A stretch of DNA of 64,000 nt from an uncultured Staphylococcaceae bacterium (GCA_964504595.1 CAZDEE010000007.1:725-64724); one strand, 5' to 3'. Counted from the stretch's first letter, positions 33,264 to 56,203 are shown. The notes: generated from the letters alone by a model not told the origin. Numbers and translations: made by a program.

Positions 33264-34406
33264 TTACTTCTTTCTCCACACCATCTTATTAACCACAGAT
33301 GTATATGATTGAATTAATCTAACAACCTTAATTGAAACATTCTCATCTGTATAATACTCACATGGTTTACCTAAATCATTTTCTTCTATCATTCTAACAG
33401 CCATATCAACTGCTTGTAAAACTTCATTTTTACTAATACCCGCTAAAACAAAGTTACCTGAATCCAATGCTTCTGGTCTTTCTGTTGATGTTCTTATACA
33501 TACTGCAGGAATAGGTTTATTAATTGATAAATAGAAACTACTTTCTTCTGGTAATGTTCCACTATCAGAAACAACACAATATGCATTCATTTGTAAATTA
33601 TTATAATCATGGAATCCTAATGGTTCATGTTGAATTACTCGTCTATCAAATTTAAAATTTCTTAATTCAATAAACTTCTTACTTCTAGGATGACATGAAT
33701 ATAATATAGGCATATCATAAATTTCCGCTAGAGAATTAATAGCATTCATTAATGATAAGAAATTCTCTTCATTATCAATATTTTCTTCTCTATGTGCTGA
33801 TAATAAAATATATTTTTTCTTTTCTAATCCTAATCTTTCTAATACACTAGATGATTCAATACTATCCAAGTTTGCATGAAGTACTTCCGCCATTGGAGAG
33901 CCAGAAACATATGTTCTTTCTTTTGCCACTCCTTCAGCATTTAAATATCTTCTTGCATGTTCAGAATAACAAATATTAACATCAGCAATATGATCTACTA
34001 TTCTTCTATTTGTCTCTTCTGGTAAGCATTCATCAAAGCATCTATTTCCCGCTTCCATATGGAATATAGGTATATGTAAACGTTTGGCCGCAATTGCAGA
34101 TAAACAAGAATTAGTATCTCCTAATATTAATAAAGCATCTGGTTTAACTTCCACCATTAAAGCATAAGCTTTAGCAATAATATTACCAATAGATTCACCT
34201 AAATGACTACCTACTGCATTAAGATAATAATCAGGTTCTCTTAAGCCTAAATCTTTAAAGAATATTTCATTTAATGTGTAATCATAGTTTTGACCTGTGT
34301 GCACTAATACTTGATCAAAATACTTATCGGCACATTTAATTGTCGCTGACAAGCGAATAATCTCTGGTCTAGTACCAATAATTGTCATTAATTTAAGTTT
34401 ACTCAT
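33264..34406 (-). CDS. capG: UDP-2-acetamido-2,6-dideoxy-L-talose 2-epimerase (CapG/FnlC type non-hydrolysing 2-epimerase)
   Basis: KLKLMTIIGTRPEIIRLS...VLVHTGQNYDYTLNEIFF and LILGDTNSCLSAIAAKRLHIPIFHMEAGNRCFD closely follow Cap5G. Confidence 0.85.
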   Translation of the reverse strand: MSKLKLMTIIGTRPEIIRLSATIKCADKYFDQVLVHTGQNYDYTLNEIFFKDLGLREPDYYLNAVGSHLGESIGNIIAKAYALMVEVKPDALLILGDTNSCLSAIAAKRLHIPIFHMEAGNRCFDECLPEETNRRIVDHIADVNICYSEHARRYLNAEGVAKERTYVSGSPMAEVLHANLDSIESSSVLERLGLEKKKYILLSAHREENIDNEENFLSLMNAINSLAEIYDMPILYSCHPRSKKFIELRNFKFDRRVIQHEPLGFHDYNNLQMNAYCVVSDSGTLPEESSFYLSINKPIPAVCIRTSTERPEALDSGNFVLAGISKNEVLQAVDMAVRMIEENDLGKPCEYYTDENVSIKVVRLIQSYTSVVNKMVWRKK

Positions 34407-34445: not shown

Positions 34446-35366
34446 CTATTTTAGTTTATAAATTTTTAATTTAATAAGCAGTTCCTTTATTAAAACTTTT
34501 AAAGGCTTTTTTTCTATAAAAAGTATTTTATAAACTTTATTATTAGAAGGAAAATATCCTTTTTTACTAAGAAAACGATATAATGAAAGCATTCCTCTTT
34601 CTTTTTCAGCAGGCACATGCAAAACACTTATCGGATCAAAGCGATAATTTGTTGAAATCATTCTAAAATCGCCCGTCCAATATCTAAAAACATAACCTTG
34701 CGCTGTTTTTACATTACTTCTGATTTTATGAGCAACAATAGATAAAATAAATTCATCACCATAAGTTGTAATAAAATTTCTTTCTATCATTTCTTTATAA
34801 ATATCATGTGTTATCTTAAAAAATATATCATACATAGATTTATTTATAGCAATAAATTCTCCACCATAACTAGTAATTAATCCTAAAGTATTATCAAATA
34901 ATTTTACTTCTTCTATCATTTTAAAATAATCGGCATTATTTAAGCGCCTGTTTATATCATAAAGCATAATATTTTGCTCTGTTTCTATCCACAGATCTTC
35001 CAAGCTAGATTGAAAATAAACATCGTTATCAACCATAAGTACATTATCATATTGTAAACTAAAAGCGTAATTTAAAGCACATAATTTATAAAATGCCAAT
35101 CCCCATTTATAATTATTATTAAAAACAAAATCATTAAATTCTTTAATTAAAATTAAAATCCCGTATTTTAATAATTGCTTTTTAAAAATTTCTGGAACAT
35201 CGATATTTGTAATTAATGCAACATCTGTATTTTTATTTGTTATTTTGGCACTTATGAGTGCCACACAAACATTCTTATAATATAGTTCTTTATTTTTTTT
35301 ATTAATATTTACTCCTGTCTGTAATAACTCACTATCTGCATAAGCGGAAAAAATTAAATTTTTCAT
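34446..35366 (-). CDS. Hypothetical protein, possibly a GT-A fold (GT8-like) sugar transferase
   Basis: Inserted between capF and capG. It has a DxD-like VDNDVYF and a YKLCALNYAF block. The function call is weak. Confidence 0.35.
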   Translation of the reverse strand: MKNLIFSAYADSELLQTGVNINKKNKELYYKNVCVALISAKITNKNTDVALITNIDVPEIFKKQLLKYGILILIKEFNDFVFNNNYKWGLAFYKLCALNYAFSLQYDNVLMVDNDVYFQSSLEDLWIETEQNIMLYDINRRLNNADYFKMIEEVKLFDNTLGLITSYGGEFIAINKSMYDIFFKITHDIYKEMIERNFITTYGDEFILSIVAHKIRSNVKTAQGYVFRYWTGDFRMISTNYRFDPISVLHVPAEKERGMLSLYRFLSKKGYFPSNNKVYKILFIEKKPLKVLIKELLIKLKIYKLK

Positions 35367-35370: not shown

Positions 35371-36528
35371 TCAATTTCCTTTCAAAATATAATATTTATT
35401 AATTAAATATACTTCTTCATAAATCGTATCAGGATTATCTTTATCAAATGGTTCATTTGCCCACATGAATGTAATTAATTCATCTTCGCCAATATTAGTA
35501 ATTGAATGAGTATATCCTGTTGGAATATTAACGACTTCTAATTTATCACTTGAAACTTCATATTCAATTACTTCTTTAGTTCCTACTTTTCTAAAAGCAA
35601 TAATTGCTTTACCTTGTACGACTAAGAACTTTTCATTTTTAGTATGATGGAAATGATTTCCTTTAGTAATTCCTGGTTTAGATTTATTAACAGAAAATTG
35701 ACCTTGACCTAAAGTTCTGATTATCTCTGTAAATGAACCTCTATCATCTTTATGTTCCACTAAGTCATATTTAAATTTATCAGTTGGTAGATAAGATAAA
35801 TATGTAGCATATAAGTATCTTTCTAATAATGAATTATGATTTGGTACTCCTAATGTTTTACTATGCTCTTTAAAGCTATAAAGAGTATCCACTATTTCAC
35901 CTAAGGTAGTTTTAATTACTGGTTCTACATAACAATAATCATCTACTACTTTTTTTGCTTTGCCATTTATTGCATTAATAATCTCATTAATCACATCATC
36001 GATATAAACTAAATTCATAACATGATTTCGATCATTAACTTGTATTGGTAAATCATTAGCAATATTATTACAAAAAGTTGCAATTGCACTATTATAGTTA
36101 GGTTTACACCATTTACCAAATACATTAGGTAATCTATACACTAATACATTAATATCATTATCTTTACCATATTCAAATATTAAATCCTCTCCTGCTTTCT
36201 TAGATTTACCATAAGGATTATCTAAAGCAGCTTGAATAGATGAAGTAATTAATATAGGACATTTATTATTATGCTTCTTTAATAAATCTAAAACTTTTAA
36301 AGTGAATCCATAATTACCTTCCATAAATTCACTTTCATTTTGAGGTCTATTAACACCCGCTAGATGAATAACAAAATCACAATAAGAACAATATTCATCT
36401 AATTTACTAATATCTGTATCATTATCAAAACATAGAGGTTCAATTAAACCACTATATTTCTTATTTAATAGTTCTGCTTGAAGATTCTTACCTATAAATC
36501 CATTTGATCCAGTTATTAGTACTTTCAT
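35371..36528 (-). CDS. capF: UDP-4-keto-6-deoxy-HexNAc 3-epimerase/reductase (CapF/FnlB type)
   Basis: MKVLITGSNGFIGKNL, HLAGVNRP, FGKWCKPNYNSAIATFCNNIANDLPIQVNDRN, plus a C-terminal cupin part. Confidence 0.85.
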   Translation of the reverse strand: MKVLITGSNGFIGKNLQAELLNKKYSGLIEPLCFDNDTDISKLDEYCSYCDFVIHLAGVNRPQNESEFMEGNYGFTLKVLDLLKKHNNKCPILITSSIQAALDNPYGKSKKAGEDLIFEYGKDNDINVLVYRLPNVFGKWCKPNYNSAIATFCNNIANDLPIQVNDRNHVMNLVYIDDVINEIINAINGKAKKVVDDYCYVEPVIKTTLGEIVDTLYSFKEHSKTLGVPNHNSLLERYLYATYLSYLPTDKFKYDLVEHKDDRGSFTEIIRTLGQGQFSVNKSKPGITKGNHFHHTKNEKFLVVQGKAIIAFRKVGTKEVIEYEVSSDKLEVVNIPTGYTHSITNIGEDELITFMWANEPFDKDNPDTIYEEVYLINKYYILKGN

Positions 36529-36543: not shown

Positions 36544-37563
36544 TTATTTAAATAAGTCTAATTTAAGTAATAACTTCTTCATACCTTCAACATCTAATCT
36601 TTCAGTATTATGAGAAGTATATTGCTCTATCTTTTCTAAATCTCTATTTCCTTTTGTAAAGAAATTATCATAATTTAGATTTCTATTATCTGCATGTATT
36701 CTATAAAATCCAGGTAATGATTCTGCACGTAACATTTCTTCTGTCGTAACTAAAACTTCATAAAGCTTTTCTCCATGTCTTGTTCCTATAATAGAATAAC
36801 CTATATTAGAACCTTTAAGTTCTAGTACTGCTTTTGCAAGAGTTTCAATTGTTGCTGCAGGTGCTTTTTGTACAAATAAATCACCTTGTTCACCATGTTC
36901 AAATGCATATAAAACTAAATCTACAGCATCTTCTAATGTCATCATAAATCTAGTCATATCTGGATTAGTTATTGTTAACTTCTTGCCTTCTTCTATTTGT
37001 TCACAGAATAATGGTATTACTGAACCTCTAGAAGCCATTACATTACCATATCTAGTTAAACAAAGAATTGGATCTCCTTCTTCCATTTGTCTACTTCTAG
37101 CAATTACATTTTTTTCCATTAATGCCTTTGTCATTCCCATTGCATTAATTGGATATGCAGCTTTATCTGTAGATAAGAAGATTGCTTTTTTAATACCATT
37201 TGCAACACAAGCTGAAATAACATTATTAGAACCAATAACATTAGTTTTAACAGCTTCCATTGGATAGAATTCACAAGAAGGAACTTGCTTTAAGGCAGCA
37301 GCATGGAAAACATAATCTACACCTCTAAACGCTCCTACGATTGAATTATAATCTCTAACATCTCCAATATAGAATTTTACTTTTTCAACATATCCAGGAT
37401 ATTTTAATTGAAGTAAATGACGCATATCATCTTGTTTCTTCTCATCTCTAGATAATATCCGTATTTCCTTAATATCAGAAGTTAAAAAACGATTAACAAC
37501 TGCATTTCCAAATGATCCTGTTCCACCTGTAACTAATAATGTTTTGTCTTTAAATAAACTCAT
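36544..37563 (-). CDS. capE: UDP-GlcNAc 4,6-dehydratase/5-epimerase (CapE/FnlA type)
   Basis: KTLLVTGGTGSFGNAVVNRFLTSDIKEIRILSRDEKKQDDM and TRYGNVMASRGSVIPLF closely follow Cap5E. Confidence 0.9.
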   Translation of the reverse strand: MSLFKDKTLLVTGGTGSFGNAVVNRFLTSDIKEIRILSRDEKKQDDMRHLLQLKYPGYVEKVKFYIGDVRDYNSIVGAFRGVDYVFHAAALKQVPSCEFYPMEAVKTNVIGSNNVISACVANGIKKAIFLSTDKAAYPINAMGMTKALMEKNVIARSRQMEEGDPILCLTRYGNVMASRGSVIPLFCEQIEEGKKLTITNPDMTRFMMTLEDAVDLVLYAFEHGEQGDLFVQKAPAATIETLAKAVLELKGSNIGYSIIGTRHGEKLYEVLVTTEEMLRAESLPGFYRIHADNRNLNYDNFFTKGNRDLEKIEQYTSHNTERLDVEGMKKLLLKLDLFK

Positions 37564-37572: not shown

Positions 37573-38379
37573 CTACTTTCTTAAAAATTTTCTATATATA
37601 TATTCCTTTATTCTAACAGGTAAAATTGAAATAATCGTAACACCTATTGAACAATATAAATATTGAAATACATTAATAAATTTGTTTTTTAACATATATT
37701 TTCTTAATAAACGCATAGATTGATTATATTTTTTTCCAGCCCTTCTACTACGCATTTCAATTCCCGAACGCATATATACAAGCGGTTCACTTATATTTAC
37801 GCATTTAGCATTGTTTAATAACAATCGGACCCACAAATAATAATCTTCAGCATAAAGCATATGTTGATATCCTCCTGCTTTTTCAATAGCTCCTTTTCTA
37901 AACATAACAGAAGGATGATTGAATGGTGAACGTTTCTTGGCAAATTTTATAATTTTTTCTTGAGTTTCAGGGACAACTCTTTTTCCAATAATATTGTCAA
38001 TATCATTTTCAAATTCAAGAATTGAAGATCCTACAACATCATAATCTTTAATCATTGCCAATTCTTTTTCCGCTCTTGTTGGGACAGAATAATCATCACT
38101 ATCCATCCTCATAATAATATCACAAGAGCATTCTTTTAGTCCAATATTAAGTGCTTTTCCCAATCCAACATTTTCATGTAACTGAATTCTTTTTATAAAA
38201 CAATATTTTTCCATATATTCATCTAAAAAATCATCTAATTCTTTTGTTAATTTACCATCGCATACAATAATTATTTCTTTCGGAAGAATCGTTTGATTAA
38301 CTATGCTATCTAAGCAAAATTTAAAATTAGAAGATTTTTCTTTATAATATACTGAAATTAAAACTGAATAATCATTCAT
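37573..38379 (-). CDS. Glycosyltransferase family 2
   Basis: YSVLISVYYKEK...SIVNQT and MRMDSDDYS (DxD). ATG 38377-38379 follows AAGGA and sits 1 nt after the licD stop. Confidence 0.8.
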   Translation of the reverse strand: MNDYSVLISVYYKEKSSNFKFCLDSIVNQTILPKEIIIVCDGKLTKELDDFLDEYMEKYCFIKRIQLHENVGLGKALNIGLKECSCDIIMRMDSDDYSVPTRAEKELAMIKDYDVVGSSILEFENDIDNIIGKRVVPETQEKIIKFAKKRSPFNHPSVMFRKGAIEKAGGYQHMLYAEDYYLWVRLLLNNAKCVNISEPLVYMRSGIEMRSRRAGKKYNQSMRLLRKYMLKNKFINVFQYLYCSIGVTIISILPVRIKEYIYRKFLRK

Positions 38380-38380
38380 A

Positions 38381-39192
38381 TTAATTTTCCTTTTCTCCAT
38401 CAAGCAAAACTATCTTGCTAACTTGGTGAGTTGATTTTCTCTCATCTAAAGGAGGTAAAATACGCCAATTGCCATATCTTAACTCCAACCATTTATCATA
38501 ATCTTGTAAAACAAAAAACTTTCTTCCTTCAAAATTCCATTCTATCAAATTATTATAAAAATCTATAGAATGAGGCTTCTTTCCTTTTCCAAAATGACAT
38601 ATTTTACAAACTAATTTTAATGGAATAAAATTAAATAAACGAAGCCACATTTCTGACTTAATATTTACAATTTTTAAAGGGGTTATTAAAGCAAAAAAAG
38701 AAACTAAGTTATAATGCTTAGTGCTAATTTCTCTTTTTATTTTTTCCATCTGACAGATTGCCAAAAATATGACATTTTAAATTGTAATTTATAAACATAT
38801 TTTCCTGTTTTATCCAACGGAAAAATGTCAATATATAAACCTTTATGTTCTTTAACTAGCTCACTTCCTTTTTCTTCAAACACTGTATTATTAAGTTTTA
38901 GTTTACCGAAATTATAAGAATAAAACTTAGATGTTTTTGTAGATTCAAACGTAAATTTAGATGAATCAAGATCTTTTTTACATGCTTTTATAAATTTTTT
39001 ATAATCTTTTCTAAGCATAACAACATCCATGTCATCATCCCAAGGAATAAATCCATTATGTCTAATGGCTCCTAGCATAGACCCACCGTCTAACGAATAC
39101 TTAATATCATTCTTTCTACAAATTCTATCAAGTTCATCCATTATTATTAATAAATTAAATTGAATTGATTTAATTAATGATGTATTTTCCAT
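38381..39192 (-). pseudogene. licD: LicD-family phosphotransferase split into two overlapping ORFs at an A6 tract
   Basis: The N-half (38737-39192) has GGSMLGAIRHNGFIPWDDDMDVVMLRKDY and YIDIFPLD. The C-half (38381-38764) has LRYGNWRILPPLDERKSTH. The frames differ by 1 nt across TGGAAAAAATAA (T6 at 38740-45 on the plus strand). Confidence 0.75.
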
Positions 39193-39198: not shown

Positions 39199-40395
39199 CT
39201 ACCTATCTTTCTTTATGATTAATTTATATAGTTCGTAATACTGAGAAAGCATATATTCTTTGCTAAATATTTTTGCTTTTCCAGCACATTTTTTTCTATC
39301 AAATGGTTGATTATATACATTAATAACAGCGTTTTTCAAACCTTCATAATCTCCTTTAGATACTAAAATACCAACATCTTTGCTAACAATTTCAGAAGTT
39401 CCGCCGATATCAAAAATCACAACCGGACATCCACACGAAATAGCCTCCATAGCAACAGTCGGATAATTATCTGCTAATGTCGGTGACAGGAAAACATCAG
39501 CTATGGAATAATACTTTGCTAATTCATTTTGATTATAAATCGGATTTATTCTAATAATATTATGATGTGTTATAATATTCTCTTCAACACCAATCATAAG
39601 AATTGCATATTTAGATGGATCTAATTCTTCAGCCAGTCTATTAATATACGTAATGCCTTTTGCTTCGCTCCATGGATATGCGACACATAAAATGACAAAT
39701 TTATCATTTATATTATAAGTTTCCCTTAAATTAGATGTCGTCGGATGAAAAACAGATAAATCTATTCCATTATTAATAACAATCTTTTGTTTATATTTCA
39801 ATGTATTTTCTGATCCACAATTAAGATTCCATTTAGATGGTGAAACAAAAACAATTTTATCAAAAGATTGGATAATCTTTTGCTTTTTTAAAAAAAAGTG
39901 ATGTGCTCTATCAAATATAGTTCGTGGATATTCATTTTTAAAATCACATTTTTCGCACTCTTTATAAATCATTTTACATTTTTCAGGAATGGAAGCGCAT
40001 CTTCCTGTAAAAATCCAATTATCATGCAATGTCCATATTACAGGTATTTTATGACGTTGAATAAATTTTGATAGCATTGATAAATTAATATAATAACCAT
40101 GGAGTGTATGGATATGAATTAAATCAAATTTTCCTCTTTTCAATTTTTTTATTAATCTTTTTGTATTAATAAAACTTCTAAAACAATCCGAACCAAATAT
40201 TTTAACTGTAAAACGATTAATCATTTTTAAGATTTTATTCCTATCTATACAATCAACATTAGATTTATCTGTTCTTTTATTAGATACAAATAAAATACAT
40301 TTATTATTATCTTTTGATTCAACATAATTCATAATATCAAGAGATATTTTTCCTGTCGAACCAAAATCACTCCCATTAATAATAGCAACTTTCAT
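39199..40395 (-). CDS. Glycosyltransferase family 4 (GT-B)
   Basis: C-terminal LADNYPTVAMEAISCGCPVVIFDIGGTSEIV motif; 398 aa. Confidence 0.75.
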   Translation of the reverse strand: MKVAIINGSDFGSTGKISLDIMNYVESKDNNKCILFVSNKRTDKSNVDCIDRNKILKMINRFTVKIFGSDCFRSFINTKRLIKKLKRGKFDLIHIHTLHGYYINLSMLSKFIQRHKIPVIWTLHDNWIFTGRCASIPEKCKMIYKECEKCDFKNEYPRTIFDRAHHFFLKKQKIIQSFDKIVFVSPSKWNLNCGSENTLKYKQKIVINNGIDLSVFHPTTSNLRETYNINDKFVILCVAYPWSEAKGITYINRLAEELDPSKYAILMIGVEENIITHHNIIRINPIYNQNELAKYYSIADVFLSPTLADNYPTVAMEAISCGCPVVIFDIGGTSEIVSKDVGILVSKGDYEGLKNAVINVYNQPFDRKKCAGKAKIFSKEYMLSQYYELYKLIIKKDR

Positions 40396-40462: not shown

Positions 40463-43400
40463 CTACTCATCTGTACTTTTTACAAATGTAATAATTTTTT
40501 TTAAATACTTATTAACTAAAACTCTTTCTGATTTTTTTAAAGCATATCTATATAATAGAATTACATATATAAAAATGAATATCATTATCTTAATTACAAA
40601 TAATACTACTGATTTATTAACAATTAAATAATCCAATCCAATTCCAATCATCAAAACAACAACTAAAGTTGGCATTATCGAAAAATGGCATTCCTTAAAA
40701 AACTTCTTAATATCAATATCAAGTATTCTTTTATAAATAATATTCATAATTATAATCATACCAATCATTTTTCCAATAAAAATAGATATAGCTGACCAAA
40801 TTGCTTCATAATTATCAAATACTGATGTAAGAAAAAGTGACAAACAAACAGATAAAATAGCAGTTACAGCAATTGAAATACATCTATATTTAATTCTATC
40901 CTTCACAATTAATAACGAATTTCCAATTTGTTGGGTAAATGTTACTAAACAAGGCAAAAGAAGAAACACTCCCACAAAATAGGAACTATCATAAGAAAAA
41001 CCATCTTTATTCATTTTCCAAATATCATTAATAAATCCTCTTCCAAAAGCTATAAACCCAGTTATAATCACTCCTGTAATCATTAATTGGAAACGCCCAA
41101 CATTAATCATTAGTTTATTATATTCTTCATTTTCAACCTTGTTTTTACTCATAATCGATAATTTAGGAATAAACATTCCATCCAATCCATTAGCTATTTG
41201 CCAAACATAACCTTCTATTGTTGAACCAAGAGTGAATAATGCAATTTCAACTGATCCAGATGTTATTCCTAATATACTAGGTTGAATCGATATAATAAAT
41301 CTTTTCATAATTGATGAAATAGCAGCCCACAAAGAAAATTTAATCAATTCTTTAAGTGTTTTTTTATCACTTTTTTTTGTTATCAATGGTTGAGATCCAT
41401 ATTTGCAATATTTTTTTATATAAATTAACTTGATAATTATTTCTATTAATCCACTTAAAATAATAGCAAATACATACATAAAAATATTATTAAACATCAA
41501 CAACGTAATTGAAACTAACAAAATATTAACTATTCTAGAAATCAATGTAATAAACTTATATTCTGGAAATTTATCATTTCCCATTAATATTCCATTTAAT
41601 GGCATAAATCCAAATGCTAAAACTGAATAAAATCCAACCATAATAAATACTGTTTTTAAAGTAGATAATTCGACCGAAGTTAACTGAATATAAATTGATG
41701 GTATAAATAAATATATAATTGATAGTGCAATTAACATAATTGCTGATAAAAATATGAATATTTTAAAAATAATACCAACCATTTTATTTGATGATTCAAC
41801 ATCTTTCTCTGCTCTATACTTAGCAACAAATCGTGATACCGCAGTTCCTAACCCTAAATCAATCGCAATTAAAGACATAATAGAATTAGCTAGTGAATAT
41901 ATTCCATAATTTGATTGTCCTAAGGTTTTAATCATCCATGGAGTATAAATAAGTCCTGCAATTATGTTCAAAAAGATAGATATATACGATATAATTGCTC
42001 CTTTTGATATTTTTTTTGTTTCACTCGATATTTTTTTACTTTTATTATCTTTTCCAGAGTCAAATTTAGAATTAAAATCTTTATCTTGGTGAATAATTAT
42101 TTTTCTAACCTCATCCTCGGATAATGGTTTTTGAATACTTAAAGGTCCTTCATTTTGATAACAAACATTTCCATCAATTAAACTATTGATAAAGATATCT
42201 AATTTATATATTAGATCATCAATATTAAATTCATATTTCATTGAATTAAAAGCATTTTCACTAATTCTTAATATTTCATTTTTATTATGGCAAAGATATA
42301 AAACTTTATCAAATAAATCATTATCATTTTCAAAATCGTAAATCAATCCGGTCTCTCTATGTTTTATAAGTGTGTATGCAGATCCTGTAGTATGACTTGC
42401 AACTACACAGCAACCACATGTCATTGCTTCGTTAACACAAGCACCCCAGCCTTCCTCTTTATTAGAGCAACTTATAACTATATGTGTGCGTTCCATAATT
42501 TTTTTCACATCATCATTTGGCATTACACCGCAGAACGTGATAAAAAACTCTAATTCATACTTTTTAATCATTTCAAATAAAATTGATTTTAATTCGCCTT
42601 CACCAACTATATTAATATGAAATTCGATATTATTTTCTTTTAAATAATTTGCAAGATAAACTATTTTTTCTGGATGTTTCAATTCAATTAATCTATTAAC
42701 AAACAATATGTTAATAGCCTCTGAATTTTTATATGATAATAACTCACTAAAATCACTATAATTACTTTTTTTTATCCAATATCCCCAATTTAAACACTTA
42801 TTAGAATTATAATTAATTAGATCATAATCATAAGCTGTATAAGAAGAATATGTTAAACAAAATTGTTGATAATGTCGATAAGGGACTTTATGTATTAAAT
42901 TACTTGCTATAGCACGTGGAGTCCACTCTTCATATTCACATTTTTTATACAAACGTTCTGAACATTGCAAAACAATTTTTCCTTTTTTTCTTACTTTTTT
43001 TAATATTGAATCTGGTGCATTTCCATAAATAATAACATCAGCTTCTTCTATCAATTTATCAGCGTATTCTTGTTGCTGAATCGAAATATATCTTCTAACT
43101 TCATTTGGCAAAATCTTATTATATTCAGGATTATATTTTTGATGTTCCAACATCGTTGAATCCAACGATATAAAATGATATCTATCACCATATTTATTAA
43201 TCAAAGCATAATGTGTTTCTATTTGATGAATTGAAAGAAAATTTGAAATAAAAACAATTTTATAATTACTTTTATCAATTTTTGAATATAAAGAATAGTT
43301 TATATTTTGATATTGATAATTCTTTTTTAATCTTTCAATTACACCATAATACAAAAATATCAACACAAAAAAGTATATATTAGCTTCTATCATTGGTTCA

Positions 43401-44566
43401 AAAAAGAATAAGCCAAAAATTCCAAATAAAACATATATATAAAATCTTTTATTAAAACTTTTTTTTGAAAAAATACAATAATCTATCGTATATTTTATAG
43501 ATAATATGCTAATTAATAAGAAAAAAATGAAAGAAATAATACCACCAATTTTATATATATCTAACCATGTATTATGAAAATATGCCGATAAAATATTGCC
43601 ATTTTCATCAATTATTTTACCATTAACTCCCATATTTCCAAATGGACTTTTTAAAAAAGTATCAAAGAATATCTCATACAATCTAAATCTCTCATTATAT
43701 GATTCATCACTTGAGTCAAACAAGCGGTTAAACATAGGAATAGAATTACATATTTTTCTAAACGATTCACTATAACTATATAAAATTAAAAATATAAAAA
43801 TAACACTTAAAATAGTTATTGCAGAAATTAAAAACAATCTTTTATACTTTTTAAAATTAGAAAACATTTGTAAAATTGGATAAATTAAAATCGCAATTAT
43901 AATTAGTAATAAACACGATCGATTTTGAAGTACTATTGTTAAATAAAGAGAAAAAATCAAAGAAATAATCGATATTATTAAATAACAGAACTTTCTATGC
44001 TCTTTAAATAAAAAAATAAGTGGAATACTCATACAAGAAATTAGAATAACAAAAGTATTAACTCCTGTCGCTGCTGTATAAGATTTTCCATAATTCCAAA
44101 TATCTAAAAAATATCTCCCATTTTGAAACAGCCCAAATTCCTTTGTTGTTAATAAAAATCCTAAAAAAGCACGCAATACAAGACCCATTGCAATAAAGAA
44201 AAAAGATTTAAAAACTTTTTTTTCAATATCGTCTATATTATTTCCTACACACATAGATGAGCCTATTAGATATAAAGCAAGAGGGAAAAACAAATAATAA
44301 AAAACATTAGCAATCGAAAACCCTTTATATATATTAAAAAACAAACAATACGATAAAGAAAATCCTAAAACAAAAATAAAGCCTTTATGAATTCTTATTT
44401 TATGACAAATAAATTGCCGAAGCAAAACTATAATACAAAGAAAGGATAAAATAACATTATCTAGCCCAAAAAAATTAAGGCCATATAAAAATAAAATCAA
44501 ATAAAAAAAATTAATTGATAAATCCCTTAAGTTATTTATTTTTAGTTTAGATAAAACTTTTCTCAT
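40463..44566 (-). CDS. Triple-fusion protein: Wzy-like polymerase / GT4 glycosyltransferase / Wzx (MOP) flippase
   Basis: 1367 aa uninterrupted. Residues 1-415 are polytopic with FHNTWLDIYKIGGIISF (Wzy_C-like). Residues about 430-800 are soluble with EGWGACVNEAMTCGCCVVASHTTGS (E-x7-E). Residues about 855-1367 are polytopic with TLGQSNYGIYSLANS...GLGTAVSRFVAKY (Wzx-like). Confidence 0.7.
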   Translation of the reverse strand: MRKVLSKLKINNLRDLSINFFYLILFLYGLNFFGLDNVILSFLCIIVLLRQFICHKIRIHKGFIFVLGFSLSYCLFFNIYKGFSIANVFYYLFFPLALYLIGSSMCVGNNIDDIEKKVFKSFFFIAMGLVLRAFLGFLLTTKEFGLFQNGRYFLDIWNYGKSYTAATGVNTFVILISCMSIPLIFLFKEHRKFCYLIISIISLIFSLYLTIVLQNRSCLLLIIIAILIYPILQMFSNFKKYKRLFLISAITILSVIFIFLILYSYSESFRKICNSIPMFNRLFDSSDESYNERFRLYEIFFDTFLKSPFGNMGVNGKIIDENGNILSAYFHNTWLDIYKIGGIISFIFFLLISILSIKYTIDYCIFSKKSFNKRFYIYVLFGIFGLFFFEPMIEANIYFFVLIFLYYGVIERLKKNYQYQNINYSLYSKIDKSNYKIVFISNFLSIHQIETHYALINKYGDRYHFISLDSTMLEHQKYNPEYNKILPNEVRRYISIQQQEYADKLIEEADVIIYGNAPDSILKKVRKKGKIVLQCSERLYKKCEYEEWTPRAIASNLIHKVPYRHYQQFCLTYSSYTAYDYDLINYNSNKCLNWGYWIKKSNYSDFSELLSYKNSEAINILFVNRLIELKHPEKIVYLANYLKENNIEFHINIVGEGELKSILFEMIKKYELEFFITFCGVMPNDDVKKIMERTHIVISCSNKEEGWGACVNEAMTCGCCVVASHTTGSAYTLIKHRETGLIYDFENDNDLFDKVLYLCHNKNEILRISENAFNSMKYEFNIDDLIYKLDIFINSLIDGNVCYQNEGPLSIQKPLSEDEVRKIIIHQDKDFNSKFDSGKDNKSKKISSETKKISKGAIISYISIFLNIIAGLIYTPWMIKTLGQSNYGIYSLANSIMSLIAIDLGLGTAVSRFVAKYRAEKDVESSNKMVGIIFKIFIFLSAIMLIALSIIYLFIPSIYIQLTSVELSTLKTVFIMVGFYSVLAFGFMPLNGILMGNDKFPEYKFITLISRIVNILLVSITLLMFNNIFMYVFAIILSGLIEIIIKLIYIKKYCKYGSQPLITKKSDKKTLKELIKFSLWAAISSIMKRFIISIQPSILGITSGSVEIALFTLGSTIEGYVWQIANGLDGMFIPKLSIMSKNKVENEEYNKLMINVGRFQLMITGVIITGFIAFGRGFINDIWKMNKDGFSYDSSYFVGVFLLLPCLVTFTQQIGNSLLIVKDRIKYRCISIAVTAILSVCLSLFLTSVFDNYEAIWSAISIFIGKMIGMIIIMNIIYKRILDIDIKKFFKECHFSIMPTLVVVLMIGIGLDYLIVNKSVVLFVIKIMIFIFIYVILLYRYALKKSERVLVNKYLKKIITFVKSTDE

Positions 44567-44568: not shown

Positions 44569-45018
44569 TTATTTCCTTCTCTCTTTGATAAATGTTCTAT
44601 ATAGTTCAAAATCAGAATTCTTATATAAATCAGTTAAGGTACAATCTCTGTATACAAATTGAATAACTCTTTTTTGACCATTATCATAATAAATCAAATT
44701 AATCATATTCTCTGTAATATTATGTCCTTCTTCATCATAAAGTGGATTTTTGTATTCATCTCTTATAAATGTGACTGCATGTTGCCAATTTGCTGTTATA
44801 ACATTAATAATTGTCATCTCATTTTCCGCATAAGTTGTTAATGTAGCCCTATTTGTAATCGATAAATGTAGTTTTTGTGTTACCTTTCCATCTAAAACAA
44901 AATAATAATCACCTAATGTTCCCATTTGAAAAATATCTAAAGAAAAAATAAGACATGAAATGATAAAAATAGAACAAACAGCTATAATACTTTTTTTCTT
45001 TATTTCTTTTTTATTCAC
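44569..45018 (-). CDS. Hypothetical N-terminally anchored protein
   Basis: One TM segment (IIAVCSIFIISCLIF). Tightly packed between two polysaccharide genes: 8-nt overlap upstream and a 2-nt gap downstream. Confidence 0.4.
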   Translation of the reverse strand: MNKKEIKKKSIIAVCSIFIISCLIFSLDIFQMGTLGDYYFVLDGKVTQKLHLSITNRATLTTYAENEMTIINVITANWQHAVTFIRDEYKNPLYDEEGHNITENMINLIYYDNGQKRVIQFVYRDCTLTDLYKNSDFELYRTFIKERRK

Positions 45019-47122
45019 TGTAAAAACTCATCCCTTTCTTTTTTAAATAATTCTTTATTTTTTTTAATAGCTTTTTTGGCAATATTTTTTTCAAATACCA
45101 TTTAAAAGTTAATTCAAAACTCTTTGCAAAGCTAATTCTCTTTCTATCGCCGAAATACAATTGATTTTTAGTCAAAAATCTTCTTGATTTTATTAAAAGT
45201 TTGCCTTTTCTTATTGTATCCATAAAAGGAAAAACTTTTTTGCTAGTCATCGCACATCTATATCCTTTTTGTTCCATCTTATTTGACAAAGATACTTCAA
45301 ATTGCCATGGATTCAAATCTTCATTTACCATTTCTTTTAAAACTTCAGTTTTCCAAATACCTGGATACAGATTAACATCATAAACATCTAAAGGATTAAT
45401 AGTTTTAATTTTTTTATATTTTGTTTTTTTCTTTCCAGATGGAGTATTAAATAATCTAAAATAATCATAATCTTCACATTTAATTATTTCTAATAATTCA
45501 TTAATCTTTTTTATCTTTATTGGTTTTGTCAACAAATAATCATCTAATGTAATCAAAACATATTTTGTCGATATTCTACTCAACGCTTCTTTTATTCTAT
45601 GAGAAAACTCTTTCTCTTCCCCTGCAAAAATAAAATGAATATTATCGCGCTTTATCTTTTTATTTTCTTTATCGCTTACTAAATACGTTTCCATATTTCT
45701 ATTTCCAAAATTATTCTCTAAAAGAGTAAAATTTGCATCCCATATATCACTAAATGCATCACACGATAAAATTAATAAAGAAATATCAGTAGAATAATTT
45801 CTCTCATTATTCTTATTAAAAGCATCAATAACTATCGTTTCAAACCTTTTATTATTAATTTCTAATAAATGATTTGTTCTATATGTTTCTTTTGCATTTT
45901 TAAGTTTATTATTAATTTCTTCATTAGAAAAAATAAATGAACGCAAAGATTGTTCTAAATTGTAAGTCTTAGTAATTACACAAGCTGTATCAGTTTTAAT
46001 TAAATACTGAATAACACCACACTCTTCTGAGCCAAATGCAATAGTAGGAATTCCAGATGATAAACAATCCGCCACTTTTGTTGATAAAGAATACTTTGTT
46101 GTTATTATATCCTTGCTTTTTGTTCCTTCAACTATAATTAAAAAATCACTTTCTTTAGTTTTTTGAATTACTTCAGAATATGGTATTGAACCAAATAAAT
46201 TTATCCCTTTACACTTTTTTAAAATCTTAAGATATTGATTTTTATTCTCATTAGTATATACATTTATACAAAAATTTTCATTAATCTTTTGCAATGCATG
46301 TGCAAGTGAAACTAAAGATTCGTTTCTGCCATTTCTTATATTACCAAAATATGAAAAAGTTGGTTTATTGCTTATTTGGTATCCAAATTTATCTAACGAT
46401 AATTCAGAAGAAAGATATATAGTTTGTCCTTTGCAACCATAAAATTCATTGTATTTATCTCGTATTTTATCGCTTATATAAATAATATCACCAGGATAAT
46501 CCATAACTTTTTTTATCAGCTTTTTATATTTATACCTATAAATATGATATAAAGGCGATAAACTAAAATGATCATTAAAAATATAATCATCTCCTGTTGA
46601 AGAAACAATAGGTATATTAAATTTCTTAGCAACATATAAAGCAATTTCAGGAATAAAAAAATCATCTGAAAAACTTAAAAATATTACTTGTGGACAAAAA
46701 TCAACTAACCACTCATTAAATTCTTTTGTAAGCCAATATTTCTTATTCCATAACCATTTTCTCATCAAAAAAACAAATGGTGTTTTGTTACTACCAATTT
46801 TATACAATTTGCTAAAAAAAGAACTTTTAGTTTCTAATTTATTATCCTTCCATTCATCTTGAAGATCCTTATCTTCAAATGAAATGCCTGTTTTAATCTT
46901 TTTTGAAAACCTTCTTTTTAGCAATCTCTGATCCGTAATTTGAAAAAACTTTCCACAGTGCCCCTTTGTAGGAGTTTTATTTATAGAAAAAACTTGAGCA
47001 AGTTTTTCTTTAGGCCAATTATGAAAATAGGCATCAAAAGCTCTAGAAGTAGCATTTTTATTATAAGGAACCGTCCCCACAATTAAAACTCTGGGTAAAT
47101 CTTTATTTTCCATATCATCCAC
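45011..47122 (-). CDS. Putative two-domain glycosyltransferase (GT-B-like N-half, unknown about 260-aa C-half)
   Basis: 703 aa. The N-half has RVLIVGTVPYN and GIPTIAFGSEECGVIQYL. The C-half has LLILSCDAFSDIWD...ITLDDYLL (DxD-like). The function is inferred mainly from context. Confidence 0.45.
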   Translation of the reverse strand: MDDMENKDLPRVLIVGTVPYNKNATSRAFDAYFHNWPKEKLAQVFSINKTPTKGHCGKFFQITDQRLLKRRFSKKIKTGISFEDKDLQDEWKDNKLETKSSFFSKLYKIGSNKTPFVFLMRKWLWNKKYWLTKEFNEWLVDFCPQVIFLSFSDDFFIPEIALYVAKKFNIPIVSSTGDDYIFNDHFSLSPLYHIYRYKYKKLIKKVMDYPGDIIYISDKIRDKYNEFYGCKGQTIYLSSELSLDKFGYQISNKPTFSYFGNIRNGRNESLVSLAHALQKINENFCINVYTNENKNQYLKILKKCKGINLFGSIPYSEVIQKTKESDFLIIVEGTKSKDIITTKYSLSTKVADCLSSGIPTIAFGSEECGVIQYLIKTDTACVITKTYNLEQSLRSFIFSNEEINNKLKNAKETYRTNHLLEINNKRFETIVIDAFNKNNERNYSTDISLLILSCDAFSDIWDANFTLLENNFGNRNMETYLVSDKENKKIKRDNIHFIFAGEEKEFSHRIKEALSRISTKYVLITLDDYLLTKPIKIKKINELLEIIKCEDYDYFRLFNTPSGKKKTKYKKIKTINPLDVYDVNLYPGIWKTEVLKEMVNEDLNPWQFEVSLSNKMEQKGYRCAMTSKKVFPFMDTIRKGKLLIKSRRFLTKNQLYFGDRKRISFAKSFELTFKWYLKKILPKKLLKKIKNYLKKKGMSFYSE

Positions 47123-48367
47123 CTACCTCATACAATTTCTTCCATCATAAACTATCTTATCTTTCAATAGTTTTCTATCTATATCAACTATCTGTTTCCA
47201 TTCAGTTAATACCATAATAATATCGCAATGTTCTAGTACATCTTCTATTCTAGGACAATAATATATTTTATCTTTAAACACTTTAGATAAATCATTTAAC
47301 GCTACTGGATCATAAGCATAAATATTTGCTCTTTCTTCTAGTAGCTTATCAATTATATCTATCGAAGGTGCATCTCTTAAATCATTTGTATTAGGCTTAT
47401 ATGTAACACCTAAGATACCAATATTAAGATTTTCTAACGAACTAAAATCTTTCTTTAACTTATCTATCAAAATATATCTTTGACTTTCGTTAACATCAAT
47501 TGTTGATGATACAATTCTTAATTCATAACCTGCTTCTGAAGCAAACTTAACCAAAGCCTTTGTATCCTTAGAAAAGCAAGATCCTCCATAACCAATACCC
47601 GGATTTAAAAACTTATTACCAATACGAGAATCTAATCCCATGCCTAAACGAATATCATTTATATCCGCTCCTAAGATATCACATAAATTAGCTATTTCAT
47701 TAATGAATGATATCTTTGTCGCCAAGAATGAATTACAAGCATATTTCATTAATTCAGAGGTTCTTAAATTAGTAATAACATATGGAAGATTAAATGAATC
47801 ATATATTGCTTTTAATTTTTCTATTGCTATTTTATCATTTGATCCTATTACAATTCTTGAAGCTTCTAACGTATCTTTTAATGCACTTCCTTGAGATAAG
47901 AATTCTGGATTAGAAGCTATATAAAACTTAACATCATTAACTAAATGAGATTTTATATATTCTTCAACTTTCTCATTAGTACAAACTGGTACTGTTGATT
48001 TAATAACAATCACACATTCTTTGTTAATATAATTTGCTATTAAATCAGCGGTATTATAGACAAATGATAAATCACAACTTCCATCTTCTTTTTCTGGAGT
48101 ACCTACACAAATAAATATATAATCACAATCATTAAAGGCTAAACAAGCATCAGTAGTAAATGTTAATCGTTCTTTATTTTCACTTAACATCTCTTCTAAT
48201 TCTGGTTCATAAATAATACATTCACCATCATTTAACCTCTTAATCTTTTCTTCATTAATATCTAAACAAGTAACTTTATAGCCTTTATGAGCAAAACAAA
48301 TAGCGGTTACTAATCCAACGTAACCTACACCAACAACTGTAATTTTAACTTTACTATTTGTTTGCAT
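47123..48367 (-). CDS. ugd: UDP-glucose 6-dehydrogenase family nucleotide-sugar dehydrogenase
   Basis: KITVVGVGYVGLVTAICFA, catalytic GGSCFSKD, GVTYKPNTNDLRDAP. Confidence 0.8.
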   Translation of the reverse strand: MQTNSKVKITVVGVGYVGLVTAICFAHKGYKVTCLDINEEKIKRLNDGECIIYEPELEEMLSENKERLTFTTDACLAFNDCDYIFICVGTPEKEDGSCDLSFVYNTADLIANYINKECVIVIKSTVPVCTNEKVEEYIKSHLVNDVKFYIASNPEFLSQGSALKDTLEASRIVIGSNDKIAIEKLKAIYDSFNLPYVITNLRTSELMKYACNSFLATKISFINEIANLCDILGADINDIRLGMGLDSRIGNKFLNPGIGYGGSCFSKDTKALVKFASEAGYELRIVSSTIDVNESQRYILIDKLKKDFSSLENLNIGILGVTYKPNTNDLRDAPSIDIIDKLLEERANIYAYDPVALNDLSKVFKDKIYYCPRIEDVLEHCDIIMVLTEWKQIVDIDRKLLKDKIVYDGRNCMR

Positions 48368-48380: not shown

Positions 48381-49031
48381 TTATACATTAATTGTTTCTT
48401 TTTCTTCAGTATTTTCTTTAACTTTTTCAACTTCCTTAACTTGTTTTCCTTCGACAATATCTTTGCTAGTAAAAACATTAATTACAGTTTTAAATAAAAT
48501 TTTAATATCCAAGAATATATTCATCTTTTTAACATATTCTCCATCAATTTTAGCTTTTTCTTCCACTCCAAGTTCATCACGTCCGGATATTTGAGCTAGC
48601 CCTGATAATCCCGGTCTAACCTTATTAGCGTCATACTTATCTCGTTCCTCTATTAAATCAAATTGATTCCATAATGCAGGTCTAGGTCCAATAACTGACA
48701 TATGACCCATTAAAATATTAAACAACTGAGGCAACTCATCTATACTTGTTTTCCGAATAAACTTTCCCCATCTAGTAATATAAGCTTCTGGATGCTCTAA
48801 TAGATGTGTTGCAGAATCTTTCGGTGCATCTATTTTCATAGACCTAAATTTCCATATTTTAAAAATCTTTTTATTCTTTCCAACTCTTTTTTGCTTAAAA
48901 AGCACAGGGCCTTTTGAATCTAGTTTAATTATAATTGCCACAATAATCATTGGTATTCCTAATACAATAATCGCAATAAAAGAAGCGAATATATCAAAGA
49001 ATCTTTTCCAAAATAAATAATTTTTTTTCAT
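48381..49031 (-). CDS. Undecaprenyl-phosphate sugar phosphotransferase (small Bac_transf priming enzyme)
   Basis: KRFFDIFASFIAIIVL, GPVLFKQKRVGKNKKIFKIWKFRSM, DELPQLFNILMGHMSVIGPRP. Confidence 0.85.
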   Translation of the reverse strand: MKKNYLFWKRFFDIFASFIAIIVLGIPMIIVAIIIKLDSKGPVLFKQKRVGKNKKIFKIWKFRSMKIDAPKDSATHLLEHPEAYITRWGKFIRKTSIDELPQLFNILMGHMSVIGPRPALWNQFDLIEERDKYDANKVRPGLSGLAQISGRDELGVEEKAKIDGEYVKKMNIFLDIKILFKTVINVFTSKDIVEGKQVKEVEKVKENTEEKETINV

Positions 49032-49036: not shown

Positions 49037-50878
49037 CTACACCCCAACCTTATCTCTTTCTGGTTGATGATAAGTTGTTATAACCTTTGCCAATAAATCT
49101 TTTACAGTTTGAATATCATCAATTTCAAACACTTGTGATATAAATTCAATTTCATCTAAAATAGGAGCAATTTCATCTGGCTTTTCAATGAATATCTTTT
49201 CATTTGCAGTCTTTATTTGATTATCCAAATCTAGAAGTAATTCTTCATATATTTTTTCACCTGGACGTAATCCTGTTATTTCAATAGGTATCTCAACATA
49301 AGGTTCATATCCAGCTTGTCTAATCATTTTTTCCGCTAATGTAATAATTTTTACCGGCTTGCCCATATCCAAAATAAAGATTTCTCCACCTTTTGCATAA
49401 ACAGCGGATTGTAAAATAAGCCCAACCGCCTCAGGAATAGTCATAAAAAATCTTCTCATTTCTAAATCAGTAACAGTTACTGGGCCGCCTTCTTCAATTT
49501 GCTTTTTAAAAAGAGGTATAACCGAGCCATTGCTACCTAAAACATTGCCAAATCTAGTTGCAGAATATTTTGTAGTGTGAGAAAATTCAGAAAAATATTG
49601 AATAATCATTTCTGCAAATCTCTTAGTTGCTCCCATAACATTTGTTGGTCTAACAGCCTTATCTGTAGAAACTAAAACCATTTTTTCAACATTATATTCA
49701 TGACTCAACTTAGCAATGTTGTATGTACCAATCACATTAGACCTAATTGCTTCTGTTGGTGAATCTTCCATTAAAGGAACATGTTTATACGCAGCAGCAT
49801 GAAAAACTAAATTAGGTCTATATAATTTAAAAATGTTTTCCATTCTCTCTTCATTATAAGTAGCTCCAATTAATGTAACTAATTTAATATCGCTATGTTC
49901 TCTTCTAATTTTTCTTAACAAAAATTGTTGAACATCATATACAGCATTTTCATATATATCCAATAAAACAATAGTATTTGGCTTATAATCAAATATTTGT
50001 CTAACGAGCTCAGAACCAATCGATCCTCCCGCTCCTGTAACTAGAACAACTTTATTATTTATAAAATCATTCAACCCATCGTTATCCAATTTAACGGGAT
50101 CACGTGATAATAATTCATCAATATTAACATCAACAATTCTATTTTGACTAACTTTTCCCATTTCCGATAACAATGGTAATCTCTTTATCTTTACATCAAC
50201 ATCATGTAATAATTCAAATATTTCTCTTAATTTATTTTTACTTAAATGCGCTATTGCGATAATAATTTCACTAACATTATATTTTTGGATAATTTCTTTA
50301 ATATTGCAAATAGGTCCTTCTATTGGTATTCCAGAAAATAATTGTCCTATTTTTTTAGAATCATCATCTATAAACGCTACAACTTTATTGTGCATATCAT
50401 CATTATATCGACATTCATCATACACAATTTTTGCTCCCGCTCCTGCTCCAACAACAATTGTCCTTTTAGTTTTTAAATTAGAACGGCGTCTATACAATCG
50501 TGCGATTCTCTTAACACAACGAACGCTTACCAATAAAAAAGTTTCTGATAAAATAATTAAAGCTGCAATAATTATATTTATTTTTGAAACGTTTGGAATA
50601 AATTGTAACACACTATATCCAATTATATCTGTTATGAATGAGAGAATAATTAATTTAAGTGCATCACTTAAACCAAAAATAGAAGTCACCAATCTATATT
50701 GTCCAATAATCGCATAAGGAATCGTTTTAAATAAAACAATGGATATTATAAAAATAATTTCATTTAAACCTAACGAATTACAAGAAATAAATCCTAATAT
50801 ATTCAAAATAAAAATAATCAAAGCGTCAATGACCACTAATCCTATTGTATTAACAATCTTTTTTATTCTTTCATTCAT
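49037..50878 (-). CDS. capD: Membrane-bound UDP-HexNAc 4,6-dehydratase (CapD/PglF/WbpM family)
   Basis: Four N-terminal TM segments, VLVTGAGGSIGSEL, and MGATKRFAE. GGGAG precedes ATG 50876-50878. Confidence 0.85.
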   Translation of the reverse strand: MNERIKKIVNTIGLVVIDALIIFILNILGFISCNSLGLNEIIFIISIVLFKTIPYAIIGQYRLVTSIFGLSDALKLIILSFITDIIGYSVLQFIPNVSKINIIIAALIILSETFLLVSVRCVKRIARLYRRRSNLKTKRTIVVGAGAGAKIVYDECRYNDDMHNKVVAFIDDDSKKIGQLFSGIPIEGPICNIKEIIQKYNVSEIIIAIAHLSKNKLREIFELLHDVDVKIKRLPLLSEMGKVSQNRIVDVNIDELLSRDPVKLDNDGLNDFINNKVVLVTGAGGSIGSELVRQIFDYKPNTIVLLDIYENAVYDVQQFLLRKIRREHSDIKLVTLIGATYNEERMENIFKLYRPNLVFHAAAYKHVPLMEDSPTEAIRSNVIGTYNIAKLSHEYNVEKMVLVSTDKAVRPTNVMGATKRFAEMIIQYFSEFSHTTKYSATRFGNVLGSNGSVIPLFKKQIEEGGPVTVTDLEMRRFFMTIPEAVGLILQSAVYAKGGEIFILDMGKPVKIITLAEKMIRQAGYEPYVEIPIEITGLRPGEKIYEELLLDLDNQIKTANEKIFIEKPDEIAPILDEIEFISQVFEIDDIQTVKDLLAKVITTYHQPERDKVGV

Positions 50879-54530: not shown

Positions 54531-54688
54531 ACAAACGTCCTCACTTAAATTAAGTTTACTTTTTAATATTAAATCATATTTGTTAAATTATTGCTAAAAA
54601 ATAATTAAAAATTTAATTATTTAATTCAATTTTTTACTAAACAAAATACTTTATTTATAAATCACACTAACTTAAATATAGTGACATC

Positions 54689-55609: not shown

Positions 55610-55846
55610 ATATTATTCCTCCTTCAAATGATATAACTAGAATAATAATGATTAAGATAAATTAAAATAGTTCTGTAGGAGATAATATGGATTAACAATT
55701 TTATTTTTAAAACAGATTTAATATATTAAACTTAATATTTAAAATCCATCAATTTCTTGTAGTAATTATTATAATTTGTAATATAGCAAACAGAACGAAA
55801 GAGGAATAACAATTAATGAAAAAAAGAATACTGATATCTATTAACC

Positions 55847-56155: not shown

Positions 56156-56185
56156 TTATGAACTTTTAATAAGCATTTTTCTTTT

Positions 56186-56203
56186 TTGGTAATTAAAAAC
56201 CAA
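56186..56203 (+). promoter_or_regulatory. Operator-like palindrome copy 1 (TTGGTAATTAAAAACCAA)
   Basis: An 18-nt sequence with 5-bp inverted arms TTGGT/ACCAA, 8 nt upstream of the -35. Identical to the copy at 56253-56270. Confidence 0.55.

Follow-up and report, generated by a model that had tools for sequence, protein, structure and literature searches.

An open reading frame of uncultured low-GC Bacilli predicted to join Wzy_C-type, GT4 glycosyltransferase and Wzx-type flippase modules in one polypeptide

The locus described here raises the question of whether one gene can encode three enzymes of surface-glycan assembly that are normally separate proteins and, if so, what such a protein would do. 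The gene lies in a stretch of 64,000 nucleotides (the window) from an uncultured Staphylococcaceae bacterium (GCA_964504595.1, CAZDEE010000007.1:725-64724). An earlier prediction made from the DNA sequence of the window (the original prediction) had claimed a stop-free open reading frame (ORF) of 1367 codons at positions 40463-44566 that combines a Wzy polymerase, a GT4 glycosyltransferase (GT) and a Wzx flippase. These coordinates are exact, and a Shine-Dalgarno motif (GAAGGA) lies upstream of the ATG start codon. The G+C content around the ORF is 23-24%. At the local base frequencies, a stop is expected with a probability of 0.079 per codon and the mean open run is 12.6 codons, while the probability of 1367 stop-free codons is about 1e-49 (log10 P = -49). 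The longest open run in the five other frames of the same stretch does not exceed 78 codons. The ORF is therefore real and far beyond chance. The three domain assignments were checked with hidden Markov models (HMMs), and Wzy_C, Glycos_transf_1 and Polysacc_synt all scored above their Pfam gathering thresholds. At the level of sequence, it is confirmed that this 1367-residue protein joins three normally separate surface-glycan assembly enzymes in one polypeptide.

An ORF of this kind could also be produced by an assembly or sequencing error, in which a lost stop codon or a frameshift merged three adjacent genes. The window is not free of indel errors or phase variation, since a 1-nt indel in a poly-A tract disrupts the neighbouring LicD gene. 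However, in-frame errors would have been needed at two independent junctions, and neither junction contains start codons or intergenic-like sequence. The junctions had been placed at about 43280-43330 and about 42000-42170, which correspond to residues 415-430 and 800-855, approximately, and these prove to be the two inter-domain linkers. Frameshifts or stops at these sites would have undermined the claim, but the same open, collinear frame is maintained in 17 diverged homologues (NCBI, ENA, JGI, Logan), and an identical protein (P0001) is present in an independent Logan assembly. Expression from internal starts only, a further possibility considered earlier, finds no foothold in the sequence: there is no in-frame ATG, GTG or TTG at residues 406-450 or 800-865, and no Shine-Dalgarno motif was found near the nearest candidate internal starts flanking the junctions. 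Since neither junction has a start codon, the GT and flippase modules could not be made with intact N-termini from internal starts. We consider an artefact extremely improbable.

The search for the same three-domain order elsewhere, which the original prediction had suggested, demonstrated that the fusion recurs in other assemblies and in GTDB genomes. Full-length relatives from NCBI, ENA, JGI and Logan form 13 clusters at 90% identity (1299-1393 aa, query coverage 95-100%, identity 39-100%), and in each of the 12 clusters besides the query's own (39-71% identity) the protein is the same open, collinear, three-domain protein. An exhaustive HMMER search of 1.84 billion representatives returned nine 50%-identity representatives in which the architecture is complete, the most distant at 32% identity. 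Among 185,579 GTDB species representatives, a single fused ORF was found only in L003 (71% identity), L004 and L005 (52%, Erysipelotrichales metagenome-assembled genomes, MAGs). Clostridia and Bacteroidales matches in GTDB that had been candidates for full-length or GT+Wzx fusions were rejected, as they are separate adjacent genes. In an 18-sequence alignment of collinear full-length fusions, per-domain identity ranges from 24 to 75%, and the candidate functional residues of the three modules are still invariant in the most distant fused members, where domain identity is 24-33%. Judged from these alignments, the fusion has been retained by a small group of uncultured gut bacteria. The comparisons further show that, as far as homology can tell, it has been passed down within a diverged clade of uncultured low-GC Bacilli and that all three modules have been under purifying selection.

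The N-terminal module belongs to the Wzy_C superfamily of O-antigen polymerases and ligases. When the N-terminal 418 residues were scanned alone, Wzy_C (PF04932) matched residues 202-350 over the full length of the model (40.1 bits against a cut-off of 31.7), although it was not reported in the whole-protein Pfam scan of the fusion, and no NCBIfam model matches the module. Two distant relatives match Wzy_C above threshold even at full length (P0017, 36.7 bits; P0018, 36.6 bits). The Wzy-side motif that had been claimed, YFHNTWLDIYKIGGIISF, was found at residues 329-346. Sequence searches of the PDB with the module, as a single sequence or as a 10-sequence profile, gave no match. AlphaFold2 models were built from an alignment of 10 sequences and cover residues 1-830 (pLDDT 73.9, pTM 0.70) and 1-428 (pLDDT 77.7, pTM 0.81), and the longer model consists of 12 transmembrane (TM) helices followed by a complete GT-B fold. 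A Foldseek search of the PDB with the N-terminal model gave a sole significant match, the WaaL O-antigen ligase (7TPG, chain 7tpg_B; E 4e-6, probability 1.00, TM-score 0.52-0.55 over 436 columns), and the next match had an E value of 0.23. On the modelled helices, the short loops contain 15 Lys and Arg residues inside against 2 outside, which by the positive-inside rule fits a 12-TM arrangement with both termini in the cytoplasm, and a large extracytoplasmic loop (residues 266-339) is predicted between TM9 and TM10. The module thus combines an HMM score above threshold, a polytopic arrangement with a large outer loop bearing Arg and His, and a WaaL-like fold, all three of which characterize the superfamily.

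Nine residues of this module are invariant in all 18 aligned fusions (R151, R216, R281, R293, H331, N332, D336, E390 and P391), and the polar ones are all placed in loops or helix ends on the outer side. R151, R216, R281, R293, H331, N332, D336 and E390 are therefore candidates for an extracytoplasmic active site. The models show a 12-TM module of the Wzy_C/WaaL fold, with invariant Arg, His, Asp and Glu residues predicted to face outward. With regard to the label given in the original prediction, Wzy polymerase, membership of the Wzy_C superfamily stands, but a ligase of the WaaL or TacL type is indistinguishable from a polymerase by sequence or fold.

The middle module is a GT4 enzyme. Glycos_transf_1 (PF00534) matched residues 614-773 with 92.8-95.5 bits, and the fold search with the 830-residue half model was dominated by GT4 matches; the GT part aligned with BshA, BA1558, HepE and PglA over about 400 columns (Foldseek, TMt 0.63-0.71). 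The motif claimed for it, EGWGACVNE, is present as E-x7-E, and the residues invariant in all 18 sequences are H447, E537, R538, K630, E705, G708 and E713. Stand-alone GTs of 381-407 aa align to fusion residues 436-815. Model and alignment together show residues 437-812 as what should be a complete cytoplasmic GT4 enzyme of the GT-B fold, with its E-x7-E motif intact. The cytoplasmic location, which the original prediction had required, follows from the position of the domain after TM12, whose C-terminal end is predicted inside, via the 16-residue linker of junction 1. The length of this linker is nearly constant across the family, and it is free of indels in the alignment of the 13 close 90%-identity clusters, which points to a constraint on how TM12 and the GT are placed relative to each other. 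The tether at junction 2 (40-55 residues) is variable in both length and sequence among homologues.

The C-terminal module is a Wzx-type flippase of the MOP superfamily. Polysacc_synt (PF01943) matched residues 855-1119 (64.8-70.9 bits against a cut-off of 28.2), and more than 100 stand-alone MOP/Wzx proteins of about 500 aa are collinear from end to end with residues 848-1360, approximately, at 30-40% identity. A PDB sequence search with this module gave no match. Its hydropathy profile has 13 clear peaks and one weak segment, and P876, W877, Y887, E1118 and R1158 are invariant in all 18 fusions. By homology to Wzx proteins of mapped topology (PMC2932511), both termini of the flippase are presumably cytoplasmic. 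With these assignments, the predicted parities of the termini of the three modules fit, and no extra TM segments are needed to reconcile their sidedness.

Relatives in which the genes are still separate suggest how the fusion came about. In five unfused loci of Clostridia and Bacteroidales MAGs (L064, L072, L011, L071 and L078), the genes follow the order of the fusion, wzy-gt-(x)-wzx, and gt and wzx are often separated by one more gene. The Wzy-like protein (388-398 aa) is 23-24% identical to residues 21-411, the GT (381-407 aa) 28-35% identical to residues 436-815, and the Wzx protein (502-522 aa) 31-39% identical to residues 829-1359. A single indel could fuse the GT and wzx genes of L071, which share a 10-nt overlap, and the neighbours in L072 (a GT2, a 434-aa GT-B-like protein, LicD and a GT4) resemble those in the window. 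Gene order and homology show an apparent origin of the fusion from adjacent wzy-gt-(x)-wzx genes that remain separate in Clostridia and Bacteroidales relatives. Partial fusions are also found, namely GT4+Wzx (P0041), Wzx+GT4 (P0023) and GT4+Wzx+GT4 (P0085), and possibly a two-domain Wzy+GT4 form (P0054), although the short forms P0054, P0022 and P0024 may be gene calls truncated at contig ends and not true two-domain proteins. The process appears to have gone further in P0017 (L083 2424-7724) and P0018, four-domain Wzy_C+GT4+Wzx+GT4 proteins of about 1760 aa. In these, Wzy_C, GT4 and Wzx again score above the Pfam thresholds, and the counterpart of the GT4 gene downstream of the fusion in the window has also been absorbed. 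The four-domain gene of P0017 in L083 adjoins a Hachiman-type defence pair (HamA and a helicase).

The fused gene is located in a co-directional glycan cluster on the minus strand (about 32.8-50.9 kb, Table 1), the gene order of which is kept in a relative of 52% identity (L001); FnlABC-like genes are among its members. An initiating phosphoglycosyl transferase, GTs, a flippase and a polymerase-type protein, whose co-occurrence defines a Wzx/Wzy cluster, are all encoded here, the last two only as modules of the fusion: no second match to a flippase or polymerase family was found among the cluster proteins in Pfam or NCBIfam, and the only other unassigned polytopic ORF in the window (293 aa) lies 23 kb away. 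That ORF (16530-17411, plus strand) has about 10 hydrophobic segments and no Pfam family; several small ORFs surround it, the G+C content there is 24-26% (part of a low-GC patch at 16-20 kb), and it is apparently unrelated to the glycan cluster.

Table 1. Modules of the fused gene and genes of the surrounding glycan cluster, with positions counted from the first nucleotide of the window.
Feature	Position	Strand	Residues of the fusion	Remarks
Complete fused gene	40463-44566	-	1-1367	1367 aa, ATG start; Wzy_C-type, GT4 and Wzx modules in one frame
Wzy_C (O-antigen polymerase/ligase superfamily) module	43307-44566	-	1-420	12 TM, predicted N-in/C-in
Y-x-H-N-x-x-x-D-x-Y-x-x-x-G motif	43541-43582	-	329-342	Predicted outer end of TM10
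Junction 1	43259-43306	-	421-436	Short cytoplasmic linker after TM12, no in-frame start codon
GT4 glycosyltransferase module	42131-43258	-	437-812	Complete GT-B fold, predicted cytoplasmic
EGWGACVNE, E-x7-E motif of GT4 enzymes	42428-42454	-	705-713	E705 and E713 invariant in 18/18
Junction 2	42002-42130	-	813-855	Low-complexity K/N/S/D-rich tether, no in-frame start codon
MOP-superfamily Wzx-type flippase module	40466-42001	-	856-1367	About 13-14 hydrophobic segments
CapD/PglF-like membrane 4,6-dehydratase	49037-50878	-		Head of cluster
PglC-type small phosphoglycosyl transferase	48381-49031	-		Bac_transf, 213 bits
UDP-sugar dehydrogenase	47123-48367	-		
703-aa soluble protein	45011-47122	-		No Pfam/NCBIfam match; conserved neighbour
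149-aa small protein	44569-45018	-		N-terminal signal/anchor; stop 3 nt before fusion start
GT4	39199-40395	-		Downstream of fusion
LicD, frameshift-split	38381-39192	-		151-aa and 127-aa ORFs
GT2	37573-38403	-		
FnlA/CapE-like	36544-37563	-		
FnlB/CapF-like	35371-36528	-		
306-aa ORF	34446-35366	-		No Pfam/NCBIfam match; kept as 307-aa gene in L001
UDP-GlcNAc 2-epimerase	33264-34406	-		
TagD-like cytidylyltransferase	32835-33251	-		

Each of the fused genes examined is directly preceded by a gene for a small protein (134-152 aa), which abuts or overlaps the start of the fusion (L001 9560-9985, L002 522-923, L003 8294-8737, L004 9513-9935 and L083 2023-2424, in addition to the 149-aa protein of the window). 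The 149-aa protein has no Pfam or NCBIfam family. The small proteins make up a single family, share the invariant residues G36, N56, W78, E96, Y110, F121 and R141, and several of them contain a lipobox-like LSSC. From its conserved position, this protein may be an accessory factor of the fusion machine. The 703-aa protein encoded further upstream has 64-78% identity with its counterparts in L003 and L004, while L001 and L005 keep only its N-terminal 440 residues, approximately, with a faint Glyco_trans_1_2 match; it probably represents an undescribed family of glycosyltransferases with two domains. In the split LicD gene, a 1-nt frameshift lies near 38737-38750 in the poly-A tract GG-A6-T-A5, and one added A would restore a LicD of about 270 aa, as is intact in L001. 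The break may be a sequencing error; otherwise, this gene for surface-glycan decoration would undergo phase variation at the homopolymer. A soluble, cluster-associated ORF of 443 aa (31353-32684, minus strand) has no Pfam or NCBIfam match.

We conclude that one polytopic polypeptide contains three complete enzymes of the Wzx/Wzy pathway, and we consider the following mechanism, polymerisation included, to be reasonably probable. The PglC-type transferase would start a repeat unit linked to undecaprenyl diphosphate, which the GTs of the cluster, including the fused GT4, would build at the cytoplasmic face and which LicD would help to decorate. The fused Wzx module would then flip the unit and, on the outer face, the growing chain would be passed to that unit by the fused Wzy_C module, which the covalent link would keep in the same patch of membrane at a 1:1 ratio. 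The small lipoprotein-like partner would be made by translational coupling from the gene directly upstream. Such a fusion would guarantee that the enzymes assemble in equimolar amounts and that a late cytoplasmic step, translocation and glycan transfer outside the cytoplasm take place close together. As the only Wzy-type protein in the cluster, the Wzy_C module most likely acts as a polymerase. We infer functional coupling beyond physical tethering, and true substrate channelling is plausible. Several points weigh against this account. Both the Pfam Wzy_C family and the WaaL fold span polymerases and ligases, and the word polymerase rests on context. The models were built from only 10 sequences with pLDDT values of 74-78, and the TM count of the flippase is a hydropathy estimate. 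No Wzz/CpsC-CpsD or LCP ligase was found among the scanned ORFs of the window or in L001, an absence that is unusual for a classical Gram-positive capsule locus, though the genes may lie elsewhere in the genome. The long, variable and flexible junction 2 fits mere co-localisation as well as it fits a directed hand-off, and the predicted 160-kDa product may be cleaved after translation.

The same architecture would serve a different reaction if the N-terminal module were a ligase (WaaL- or TacL-like) or a PglL/WsfB-like O-oligosaccharyltransferase, which would move the flipped glycan linked to undecaprenyl diphosphate as a whole, unpolymerised, to its acceptor (a glycolipid, the wall or a protein). 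The WaaL ligase 7TPG is indeed its only significant structural match, but since solved Wzy polymerases gave no match to the N-terminal model, the fold comparison does not discriminate between ligase and polymerase. The Pfam family, which is named 'O-antigen ligase', likewise does not separate the two. The window has no chain-length regulator, and the locus has teichoic-acid-like features in LicD and the TagD-like cytidylyltransferase; the pneumococcal pathway of teichoic-acid type uses a Wzy_C-type ligase, TacL. The spacing R216 ... R281/R293 ... H331 also resembles the essential Arg/Arg/His pattern of E. coli WaaL. 'Wzy/WaaL' proteins have been handled as one group (PMC4594306). Against a ligase, the module is the sole Wzy-type protein in a cluster with a full Wzx/Wzy signature (a phosphoglycosyl transferase, at least five GT-like genes and a flippase). 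Its stand-alone Clostridia homologues occur in similar multi-GT clusters at the usual position of wzy and, like many Wzy polymerases, are without any Pfam match. In a monoderm Bacilli host, as predicted here, the classical WaaL acceptor, lipid A-core, would moreover not exist. On balance, the Wzy_C module is most likely a polymerase, and transfer en bloc by a ligase or oligosaccharyltransferase is unlikely.

It is also conceivable that the fusion is real but mechanistically neutral, small indels having merged abutting genes in an AT-rich genome, with modules that act independently or are cleaved after insertion and with equimolar expression as the benefit at most. Unfused relatives with overlapping or closely spaced genes show that one indel would be enough, as with the 10-nt overlap of GT and wzx in L071, and the many different partial fusions suggest that such events are frequent. 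Junction 2 is long, of low complexity and poorly conserved, as expected of a former intergenic or terminal region, but the near-fixed length of junction 1 points the other way. The fusion has, moreover, persisted to 24-33% domain identity without reversion to stop codons in DNA of 23% G+C, which is prone to stops, and the repeated, progressive fusion of the same neighbours, up to four domains, is the classic Rosetta-stone pattern for interacting proteins. We therefore regard a neutral fusion as possible but rather doubtful. At the other extreme, the fusion and its four-domain relatives could tentatively be viewed as a self-contained assembly line, in which GT transfer, flipping and polymerisation proceed by direct hand-off and the small lipoprotein is a new accessory factor, e.g., a minimal substitute for Wzz/PCP. 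This stronger reading is also doubtful; if true, it would be the first natural demonstration of Wzx and Wzy acting as a 1:1 physical unit.

Comparison with described systems indicates that the fusion is a new architectural variant of well-known families and not a new kind of system. With the canonical Wzx/Wzy pathway, in the O-antigen loci of E. coli, Shigella and Pseudomonas and in Gram-positive capsule loci, it shares the families Wzy_C, GT4 and Polysacc_synt/MOP, the membrane sidedness of each activity and the logic of the cluster (an initiating phosphoglycosyl transferase, several GTs and sugar-nucleotide genes). In the canonical pathway, however, these are separate proteins, whereas here a single chain would cross the membrane about 26 times, with the cytoplasmic GT between its two membrane parts, a conserved small lipoprotein-like gene is translationally coupled upstream, and no Wzz/PCP or LCP gene is nearby. 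The unfused strings of Clostridia and Bacteroidales are homologous, in the same order and with similar neighbours (LicD, GT2, GT4 and the GT-B-like protein of about 434 aa), but have separate starts and stops. WaaL (7TPG) and the N-terminal module are alike in having 12 TM helices, with a large outer loop preceding TM10, and Arg and His residues that are conserved at the outer face. They differ in sequence (12% identity, with no sequence-level match even by profile), in the presumably monoderm host without lipid A-core, and in the fusion of the module to a GT and a flippase, in a context that points to a polymerase. The pneumococcal teichoic acid pathway, which has a Wzy-type polymerase and ligase, likewise uses a MOP flippase for a LicD-decorated repeat unit built on undecaprenyl diphosphate, and LicD and a cytidylyltransferase are found in the present cluster; all components of the pneumococcal pathway are separate proteins. 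Pneumococcal TacF is described as a MOP flippase (PMC13385700).

The physical association of flippase, polymerase and cytoplasmic GTs in a Wzx/Wzy-pathway complex has been proposed for two decades. Only Wzy-Wzz contacts have been confirmed (PMC4863624). The WzyE-WzzE and PslJ-PslE complexes show that Wzy polymerases work within defined membrane-protein assemblies (PMC10030265, PMC13434223). WzyE-WzzE and PslJ-PslE are non-covalent and the partners are co-polymerases, whereas here the link is covalent and the partners are a flippase and a GT. The original prediction had been aware of no described example, and none turned up in the full-text literature searched, in which no natural fusion of Wzx, Wzy or a GT is described; literature matches to 'fused' were rejected as natural fusions, as they are cloning constructs or reporter fusions. 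A 2025 review of Wzy makes no mention of a natural fusion. The conserved fusion, together with its graded partial and extended forms, provides Rosetta-stone evidence for a flippase-polymerase-GT complex, that is, natural, evolutionary evidence that these enzymes work side by side, and it is a tractable object for the long-postulated coupling of GT, flippase and polymerase. As a single chain of defined stoichiometry, it lends itself to cryo-EM and cross-linking and to reconstituting the hand-off from flipping to polymerisation in vitro. A practical consequence is that the Wzy_C module is missed by whole-protein HMM scans, so databases label such proteins only 'glycosyltransferase', which is the sole source name of those collected here, and gene clusters with such fusions could look devoid of both wzx and wzy in automated surveys.

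The remainder of the window consists of chromosomal housekeeping genes (GlmS, GlmM, TsaBDE and others). Among named sequences, GlmS is closest to those of Erysipelotrichales and Bacilli MAGs (56-59% identity), which suggests that the host is an uncultured low-GC Bacilli lineage. Erysipelotrichales and other Bacilli lineages are monoderm, and the window showed no lipopolysaccharide genes. Next to the glycan cluster lies a region (51741-63681) that resembles a defence or mobile island. On the minus strand it contains a 929-aa surface protein with Endonuclease_I and Big_2 domains and a phage-type integrase, followed by a plus-strand block of an N6 DNA methylase, AbiJ_NTD4, an unassigned 567-aa ORF, AAA_21 (AbiEii-like) and AAA_14/DUF4143. 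The GC skew changes sign at about 56 kb.

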